64,000 nucleotides of DNA from an uncultured Clostridia bacterium (GTDB taxonomy: Bacteria > Bacillota > Clostridia > Christensenellales > UBA1242), in NCBI GenBank assembly GCA_934778215.1, contig CAKVOE010000001.1:9273-73272 (forward strand). The letters are read 5' to 3'. Below, one piece after another: positions 39,523 through 39,678 of the stretch (positions are counted from its first letter, which is position 1; the number at the start of each line of letters is the position of its first letter). The position numbers and the translations under genes were made by a program. The notes beneath the pieces are model-generated. The model did not search any database, had not been told where the DNA came from, and worked only from the letters and a program-made list of their open reading frames with translations.

Positions 39523-39678
39523 TATACATCTATCTTACACATAGATGAATAAAATCACCCCAAAAGAGTATCTTGCAATAAATAAAATAATCAAATTTAC
39601 TTATATTATTAAAGTAGGGTTGACATTTTGTGTAAAATATGTTAAAATTTGTACATCTATGTGTAAGATAAATGTATA
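39523..39678. promoter_or_regulatory. Candidate invertible promoter cassette (inverton), OFF orientation relative to the 1690-aa lipoprotein gene
   Basis: IR-L is 39523-39547 (TATACATCTATCTTACACATAGATG). IR-R is 39654-39678; its reverse complement TATACATTTATCTTACACATAGATG matches 24/25. Each IR has the form 7-bp arm / 7-bp asymmetric spacer / 7-bp arm. The enclosed 106 bp carry TTGACA (39620-39625), a 17-nt spacer and TAAAAT (39643-39648) on the + strand. Confidence 0.6.

Follow-up and report, generated by a model that had tools for sequence, protein, structure and literature searches.

The 64,000-nt stretch of DNA analysed here (hereafter, the window) contains a gene for a large putative surface lipoprotein, and between its start codon and the end of a neighbouring tyrosine recombinase gene there is a short inverted repeat. 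This arrangement raises the question of whether the lipoprotein gene is subject to phase variation through the inversion of a promoter. Our comparison of public assemblies showed that both orientations of the element exist in nature and that its architecture is conserved. Based on these data, we consider it very probable that the element is a self-contained phase-variation switch, and the bacterium most likely turns the 1690-aa lipoprotein on and off by promoter inversion; from the sequences, we infer both that expression depends on the orientation of the segment and that the inversion is reversible within a clone.

On the + strand, the start of the lipoprotein gene is followed by the first recombination site, the interior segment, the second site, a hairpin with seven T residues and the end of the recombinase gene. 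The coordinates of these features, together with those of a second and unrelated invertible element of the window, are given in Table 1.

Table 1. Features of the lipoprotein switch and of the second invertible element, in window coordinates.
Feature	Position	Strand	Description and basis
Controlled gene, putative surface lipoprotein	34428-39500	-	1690 aa; ORF list, Pfam, N-terminal sequence
Lipoprotein RBS, AAGGAG	39509-39514	-	Read directly; gene ATG at 39500
Inverted repeat arms	39523-39553 and 39648-39678		31 nt, 90% complementary; repeat finder
Lipoprotein-proximal recombination site	39524-39550		27 bp: outer arm ATACATCTAT, spacer CTTACAC (39534-39540), inner arm ATAGATGAAT
Invertible interior	39548-39653		106 bp; exact reverse complement in contig L051, flanks unchanged
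Predicted promoter, TTGACA-17-TAAAAT	39620-39648	+	11/12 consensus match; TG extension (extended -10)
Recombinase-proximal recombination site	39651-39677		27 bp; spacer GTGTAAG (39661-39667), inverse orientation
Predicted intrinsic terminator facing the switch	39687-39707	+	Stem CAGCC/GGCTG (39687-39700), loop CAAA, T7 (39701-39707)
Tyrosine recombinase gene, presumed invertase	39721-40614	-	297 aa; PF00589, E 8.6e-32
Second inverted repeat	26481-26513 and 26603-26635		Perfect, 33 nt, encloses 89 bp; unrelated to the lipoprotein switch
Predicted promoter of the second element, TTGATA-17-TAAAAT	26566-26594	+	Within the 89 bp
Gene downstream of the second element	26667-28661	+	664 aa, no Pfam match; promoter aimed at the gene in the window (ON)

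Within the inverted repeat, 25-nt cores match at 24 positions and have 106 bp between them. The 21-nt core CATCTAT-CTTACAC-ATAGATG is present in exactly two copies in the 64 kb, one per strand, and 0.00 matches were expected from dinucleotide shuffles. By length, this repeat ranks second among the inverted repeats of the window with arms less than 600 nt apart. The lone mismatch between the two copies falls in the right one, whose outer arm reads ATAAATG, the family consensus form. A preliminary description of this DNA had listed a 25-bp inverted repeat (24/25) enclosing 106 bp, two core units with 7-bp spacers in opposite orientation, a near-consensus promoter firing on the + strand, a + strand terminator and a 297-aa tyrosine recombinase gene beside the switch; all of these sequence features were found where it had placed them.

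The predicted promoter is the top promoter-like site within positions 39000-41200. Sites with at least 11 of 12 consensus matches number 17 in the whole window, counting both strands, and approximately 0.03 are expected per 106-bp segment. The -10 box is located 5 nt from the inner arm. In the orientation present in the window, the promoter is turned from the lipoprotein gene towards the terminator and the recombinase gene's 3′ end; the preliminary description had stated the same and had called this state OFF. The same description had anticipated that, after a flip, the promoter would be located 45-50 nt upstream of the RBS; this distance is only approximate, since 38 nt would lie between the end of the -10 box and the RBS. 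Transcription in the flipped state is predicted to begin within the repeat, giving a 5′ UTR of approximately 46 nt. There are 22 nt from the repeat to the ATG and 8 nt from the RBS to the repeat edge (39523), too little space for a fixed promoter between the repeat and the gene.

The suggestion that the terminator insulates the recombinase gene, also made in the preliminary description, is supported by the conserved polarity of the hairpin, which carries a run of six to seven T residues on the switch-to-recombinase strand in 15 of the 15 distinct related loci. In the same 15 loci, no T-run follows the hairpin on the sense strand of the recombinase gene; transcription of that gene may therefore continue into the switch. 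Such read-through from the recombinase promoter could give basal transcription of the lipoprotein gene in both states, a caveat to the tightness of the predicted OFF state.

The lipoprotein begins with MKKKIFVYMLTLCLIVACSFALTAC, a signal peptide with a lipobox-like LTAC motif, and Pfam searches revealed the Ig-like repeat families MpPF1, Big_3, He_PIG, Flg_new and MBG. The total of 124 bits obtained with MpPF1 (cut-off 22.7) is the sum of repeated partial matches to profile positions 263-310, with no single stretch being significant. The length of the protein varies by strain, from 1690 aa in the window and in assembly L049 to 1299 aa in L053; in L048, whose locus has a 100-N gap, the gene was called as 1153 aa. 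The lipoprotein of the sister species has 905 aa. Additionally, a 77-nt stretch that includes the distal site and the RBS and reaches into the beginning of the signal-peptide sequence is identical at 76 of 77 positions across species, while the recombinases are only approximately 82% identical.

The gene for SmpB and a full-length tmRNA gene (33817-34167, 156 bits) are located just past the 3′ end of the lipoprotein gene, the two together spanning 33293-34167. The block formed by the lipoprotein gene, the recombinase gene and a second surface-protein gene (40955-43918; 987 aa, Flg_new_2) thus lies between ssrA and a PNP_UDP_1 gene (44192-44869). In the sister species (L021), the gene order is kept and the surface genes are of different length.

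The recombinase obtained 110.7 bits with PF00589 (cut-off 27.1). The 297-aa start was preferred over the start of the 302-aa ORF because of a GGAGG sequence 8 nt upstream. Based on the alignment to the Tn1549 integrase, its closest solved relative, the catalytic R, K, HxxR, H and Y residues are all present. Three family assignments were evaluated and rejected: the FimB/FimE invertases (NCBIfam NF007370; 19.5 bits against a cut-off of 221), the Xer recombinases XerC, XerD, XerA and XerS (best match XerA, 80.5 bits against 220; XerC, 67.7 against 335) and the integron integrases (55.6 bits against 265). A tblastn search found no paralogue of the recombinase elsewhere in the window. Its adjacency to the repeat and the co-conservation of both point to this recombinase as the probable inverting enzyme.

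The exact 297-aa recombinase was found in four places of the public assemblies (L048, L049, L050 and L051), and a lookup with the 302-aa ORF form returned only two 1.2-kb contigs (L001 and L002), both OFF. Contig L051 (ENA ERZ4567885) is a 3637-nt Hadza/Nepal gut metagenome contig recorded in two samples, with a coverage of 3.3x, and its recombinase is identical to that of the window in all 297 aa. This contig carries the exact reverse complement of the 106-bp interior between unchanged flanks, so that the promoter faces the lipoprotein gene (ON). When positions 39548-39653 of the window were inverted in silico, there were zero differences from L051 within the switch; over the 3637 nt, 39 alignment columns differed, 13 of them at unaligned ends and the others being scattered SNPs and two single-base indels, as compared with 107 differing columns against the native window. 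The flipped form that the preliminary description had predicted for other metagenomes was thus found in L051.

Assembly errors can arise at inverted repeats, the coverage of L051 is low (the 3.3x mentioned above), and the switch of one sister-species scaffold (L009) contains a 10-N gap, so the flip in L051 could in principle be an artefact of the assembly. However, the orientation can be read directly, since the repeat (27-31 nt) is far shorter than the reads and the final k-mers, the contig was recorded in two samples, and its breakpoints lie exactly at the sites. Moreover, the same precise inversion was observed in three other lineages assembled with different assemblers, and we regard an artefact as extremely improbable.

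Besides the window, the element is OFF in L001, L002, L048, L049, L050 and L053 and ON in L051, i.e., six assemblies of the species against one. Both orientations of the window's own element were therefore seen between samples, in assembled contigs. The four assemblies of the sister species (L009, L020, L021 and L031) are all OFF. The predominance of OFF in 6/7 assemblies of the species and 4/4 of the sister species suggests that switching to ON may be rare. A scan of JGI metagenomes with the core site returned only two sister-species contigs, both OFF, and no flipped form.

The comparison of the window with L051 also delimits the exchange. The outer arms, which read CATTTAT next to the recombinase gene and CATCTAT next to the lipoprotein gene, stay fixed, and the inner flanks move with the segment, which places the exchange within the 17-nt stretch common to both sites. 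A pair of related cassettes with the recombinase P0096 has divergent inner arms, ATAAACG and ATAAGTG, that travel with the interior. Considered together, the two pairs confine the exchange to approximately 14 nt centred on the 7-bp spacer.

Contigs L001 and L002, which come from different samples and assemblers, both end at the position corresponding to 40712 of the window. On the opposite side they stop at 39514 and 39522, 8 nt apart, where the lipoprotein-proximal repeat has its outer edge. A mixed orientation would break the contigs at the inner edges; flipping thus does not explain these ends. Co-resident relatives sharing the stretch with the site, the RBS and the signal peptide may be one cause of them. 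The intergenic region near 40712 is a cluster of SNPs between the window and L051.

The homologues of the window recombinase number 2636 at E <= 1e-10. The genome matches are Christensenellales MAGs, labelled ‘Christensenella sp. UBA5893’, ‘Candidatus Caccopulliclostridium gallistercoris’ and ‘uncultured Clostridia’. All homologues with 60-82% identity for which downstream DNA was available, from Christensenellales MAGs and metagenomes, carry the same cassette: the stop codon of the recombinase gene, the hairpin, a site, approximately 100-130 bp with one good promoter, an inverse site, an RBS and a gene on the same strand. The hairpin, as read from the switch, is preceded by an A-run and followed by a T-run. 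In the P0098 group (59% identity), no recognisable site was found; every contig of this group stops 140 nt past the gene. In the P0021-type recombinases, which have 300 aa, the switch-facing hairpin is located inside the last codons (...KKSAKLAD*; e.g., L003 3864-3903), so that the same DNA encodes the C-terminus and the antisense terminator.

We aligned 11 distinct cassettes, all normalised to the ON orientation. Invariant or nearly so over the 11 cassettes are the outer arm CATTTATCT, the TTG of the -35 box, the -10 box with its constant 5 nt to the inner arm, the promoter-side inner arm and the distal outer arm AGAT.A.TGTAT; the remaining interior is poorly conserved. The spacers fall into four types, CTTACAC, CTCATAG, CTCACAG and CTTCTAG, with conserved arms around them, and in each of the 11 cassettes the two spacer copies are perfectly complementary. 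In core sites of tyrosine recombinases, the binding arms are conserved and the overlap region must match between the partners; spacers that vary between cassettes and match within them, between conserved arms, are thus the pattern expected of such sites. A scan of all 56 loci and the window, with the available flanks, found exactly two inverse sites per cassette locus, and a shufflon- or integron-like reading, in which a third site would permit alternative joins or the capture of cargo, was rejected.

Both orientations were also found among the related cassettes. The identical P0096 recombinase accompanies ON cassettes in L010-L016 and an OFF cassette in L018, and once the orientation is normalised L010 equals L018, as the window equals L051. 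A second lineage pair is formed by L022 (ON) and L028 (OFF), and in a third lineage L027 is ON, with L023, L025, L032 and L003-L008 being OFF. Additionally, the ends of contigs L017, L019 and L024 coincide exactly with the final base that the ON and OFF forms share, which is the graph branch expected when both orientations are mixed in one sample; these ends hint at mixed populations.

The two orientations could be read as an old strain polymorphism, produced by rare flips in evolution and with each strain now locked in its own state. The two forms of the window's element come from different samples, L051 belongs to a different strain according to its approximately 25 SNPs relative to the window over 3.6 kb, and the OFF orientation is strongly dominant, all of which would fit this reading. 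Nevertheless, the recombinase is intact, with 100% protein identity between the ON and OFF strains, and the recombination sites are intact in all copies. Both orientations recur in four independent lineages, contigs break exactly at the base of the ON/OFF branch in three assemblies, and the paired covariation of the spacers argues for ongoing selection for recombination competence. We therefore consider a fixed polymorphism unlikely.

The same cassettes bear on another proposal, namely, that a genomic island is inserted beside the tmRNA gene, with this recombinase as its integrase, and that the repeat is unrelated to the recombinase or is flipped by some other enzyme. The genes of tmRNAs are classic insertion sites of islands, the block with the surface and recombinase genes sits beside ssrA/SmpB as described above, and the recombinase has its closest solved relative in the Tn1549 integrase. 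However, the homologues keep the order terminator-site-promoter-site at a fixed distance in unrelated contexts, with GTPase genes, defence genes or prophage-like regions alongside. Every locus shows precisely two inverse sites and no flanking direct repeat, and the sister species maintains the gene order. This makes an island integrase a very improbable explanation.

For the phase-variation switch that we favour, the following mechanism can be proposed. The recombinase would bind the two 27-bp sites, each consisting of 10-bp arms around the asymmetric 7-bp spacer CTTACAC, and, as the sites are inverse, strand exchange in or next to the spacers would flip the 106 bp. The flipping segment would contain a single strong sigma-70-type promoter, with its -10 box 5 nt from one of the inner arms. 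In the OFF state, present in the window, a + strand RNA would start in the recombinase-proximal repeat and end approximately 50 nt later, at 39701-39707; the lipoprotein gene would be silent, and the terminator would shield the recombinase gene from antisense transcription. In the ON state, present in L051, the transcript would start near position 39546 of the - strand, approximately 46 nt upstream of the lipoprotein ATG. The population would thus be a mixture of cells with and without the large surface protein.

The genes located behind the sister cassettes are of two classes, lipoprotein genes and defence genes. Lipoprotein cargo was found in L010, L021, L026, L027 and L038. In the second class, the cargo is a full-length HEC-05/GmrSD_N protein (L003 4081-6486, E 1.4e-226), a PD-T4-7-like protein (L028 799-1686, E 6.5e-30) or an Mrr_cat nuclease (L035 1322-2287), and a HEPN_AbiU2 gene adjoins the cassette in L036 (410-1024). 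This cargo of defence genes suggests phase-variable anti-phage defence in Christensenellales. The conservation of the cassette ends approximately 10 nt past the distal site, where the near-identical L023 and L032 run into unrelated genes; this divergence at the boundary suggests an exchange of cargo, or an insertion of the cassette, at that point. As a tentative proposal, which we hold to be possible and somewhat short of probable, the lipoprotein switch could be one copy of a portable, plug-in phase-variation cassette placed before interchangeable cargo in Christensenellales. The sister defence cassettes suggest that the same module hedges both surface exposure and phage defence, and, if the cassette were indeed portable, surface display and phage defence would be bet-hedged by one module.

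Several cassettes adjoin genes for large serine recombinases and small HTH proteins (L010 36-2297; L003 2496-2741), in a context that resembles the edge of a prophage or integrative element, and the cassettes may travel on mobile elements. A phage-borne cassette was sought by scanning IMG/VR with the commonest site; the single match, in an AT-rich giant-virus bin and without a recombinase, was taken as chance.

Among the known systems, the switch has its closer parallels in fimS and in the mpl promoters of Mycoplasma penetrans rather than in cwpV of Clostridioides difficile. The fimS element has a length of 314 bp and is served by two recombinase genes, whereas the switch described here has 106 bp, 27-bp sites with a 7-bp spacer, a conserved switch-facing terminator and only one recombinase gene, which is outside the FimB/E family. 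The likeness lies in a short invertible promoter flanked by repeats, which controls the gene of a surface structure and is adjoined by a tyrosine recombinase (for fimS, as summarised in PMC2784873).

In M. penetrans, each mpl lipoprotein gene (P35 family) is switched by the inversion of its own small promoter segment (PMC10502178). The inversion of a small promoter segment, here a predicted one, before a lipoprotein gene is common to both systems. The lipoprotein of the window has the repeated partial matches to MpPF1, ‘M. penetrans paralogue family 1’, described above; its homology to the P35 proteins appears to be only partial. The two systems differ in that the present bacterium belongs to the Christensenellales and uses genetic code 11, and in that it has one switch with an adjacent recombinase instead of dozens of switches served in trans.

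The preliminary description had drawn analogies to fimS/FimBE and to C. difficile, among others; the logic of fimS/FimBE holds, and the parallel with cwpV is loose. In C. difficile, the inverted segment does not include the cwpV promoter, the OFF state depends on a terminator that forms in the transcript, and recV is located away from the switch and serves several of them (PMC2784873). In the present switch, the invertible segment itself contains the predicted promoter, and the recombinase is encoded in cis. The RecV system nevertheless resembles the present one in its presence in Clostridia, its tyrosine recombinase, its short inverted repeats (21 bp in C. difficile), its large surface protein gene and its mostly OFF state (PMC2784873).

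A further likeness is found in gut Clostridia. A PhaseFinderDC survey of a defined gut community describes an ‘inverton group 139’ of intergenic invertons, nearly each of them with a nearby tyrosine recombinase of ‘invertase group 35’; the strains named for this group include Clostridium sp. D5 and Intestinimonas butyriciproducens (PMC11892184). By that description, these invertons share with the present switch the adjacent tyrosine recombinase. Our literature search found no paper on invertons in Christensenellales. The kind of mechanism proposed here has long been known and is unsurprising to a specialist; it is newly documented in this bacterial group, as a sequence-verified and naturally flipped invertible promoter in an uncultured human-gut Christensenellales bacterium. 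The 10-7-10 site, the co-varying spacers and the built-in insulating terminator provide rules for annotating such switches in other genomes.

The second inverted repeat of the window (Table 1) has arms that are themselves hairpins flanked by A and T runs. No recombinase gene was found among the neighbouring genes scanned, which include NrdD, a TrxB-like gene and NrdG, and a paralogue of the window recombinase serving this element was rejected, as tblastn found none in the window and the scan of those neighbours gave none either. In L052, from a 223-kb Hadza contig encoding an identical 664-aa protein, the 89 bp are reverse-complemented, i.e., in the OFF orientation.
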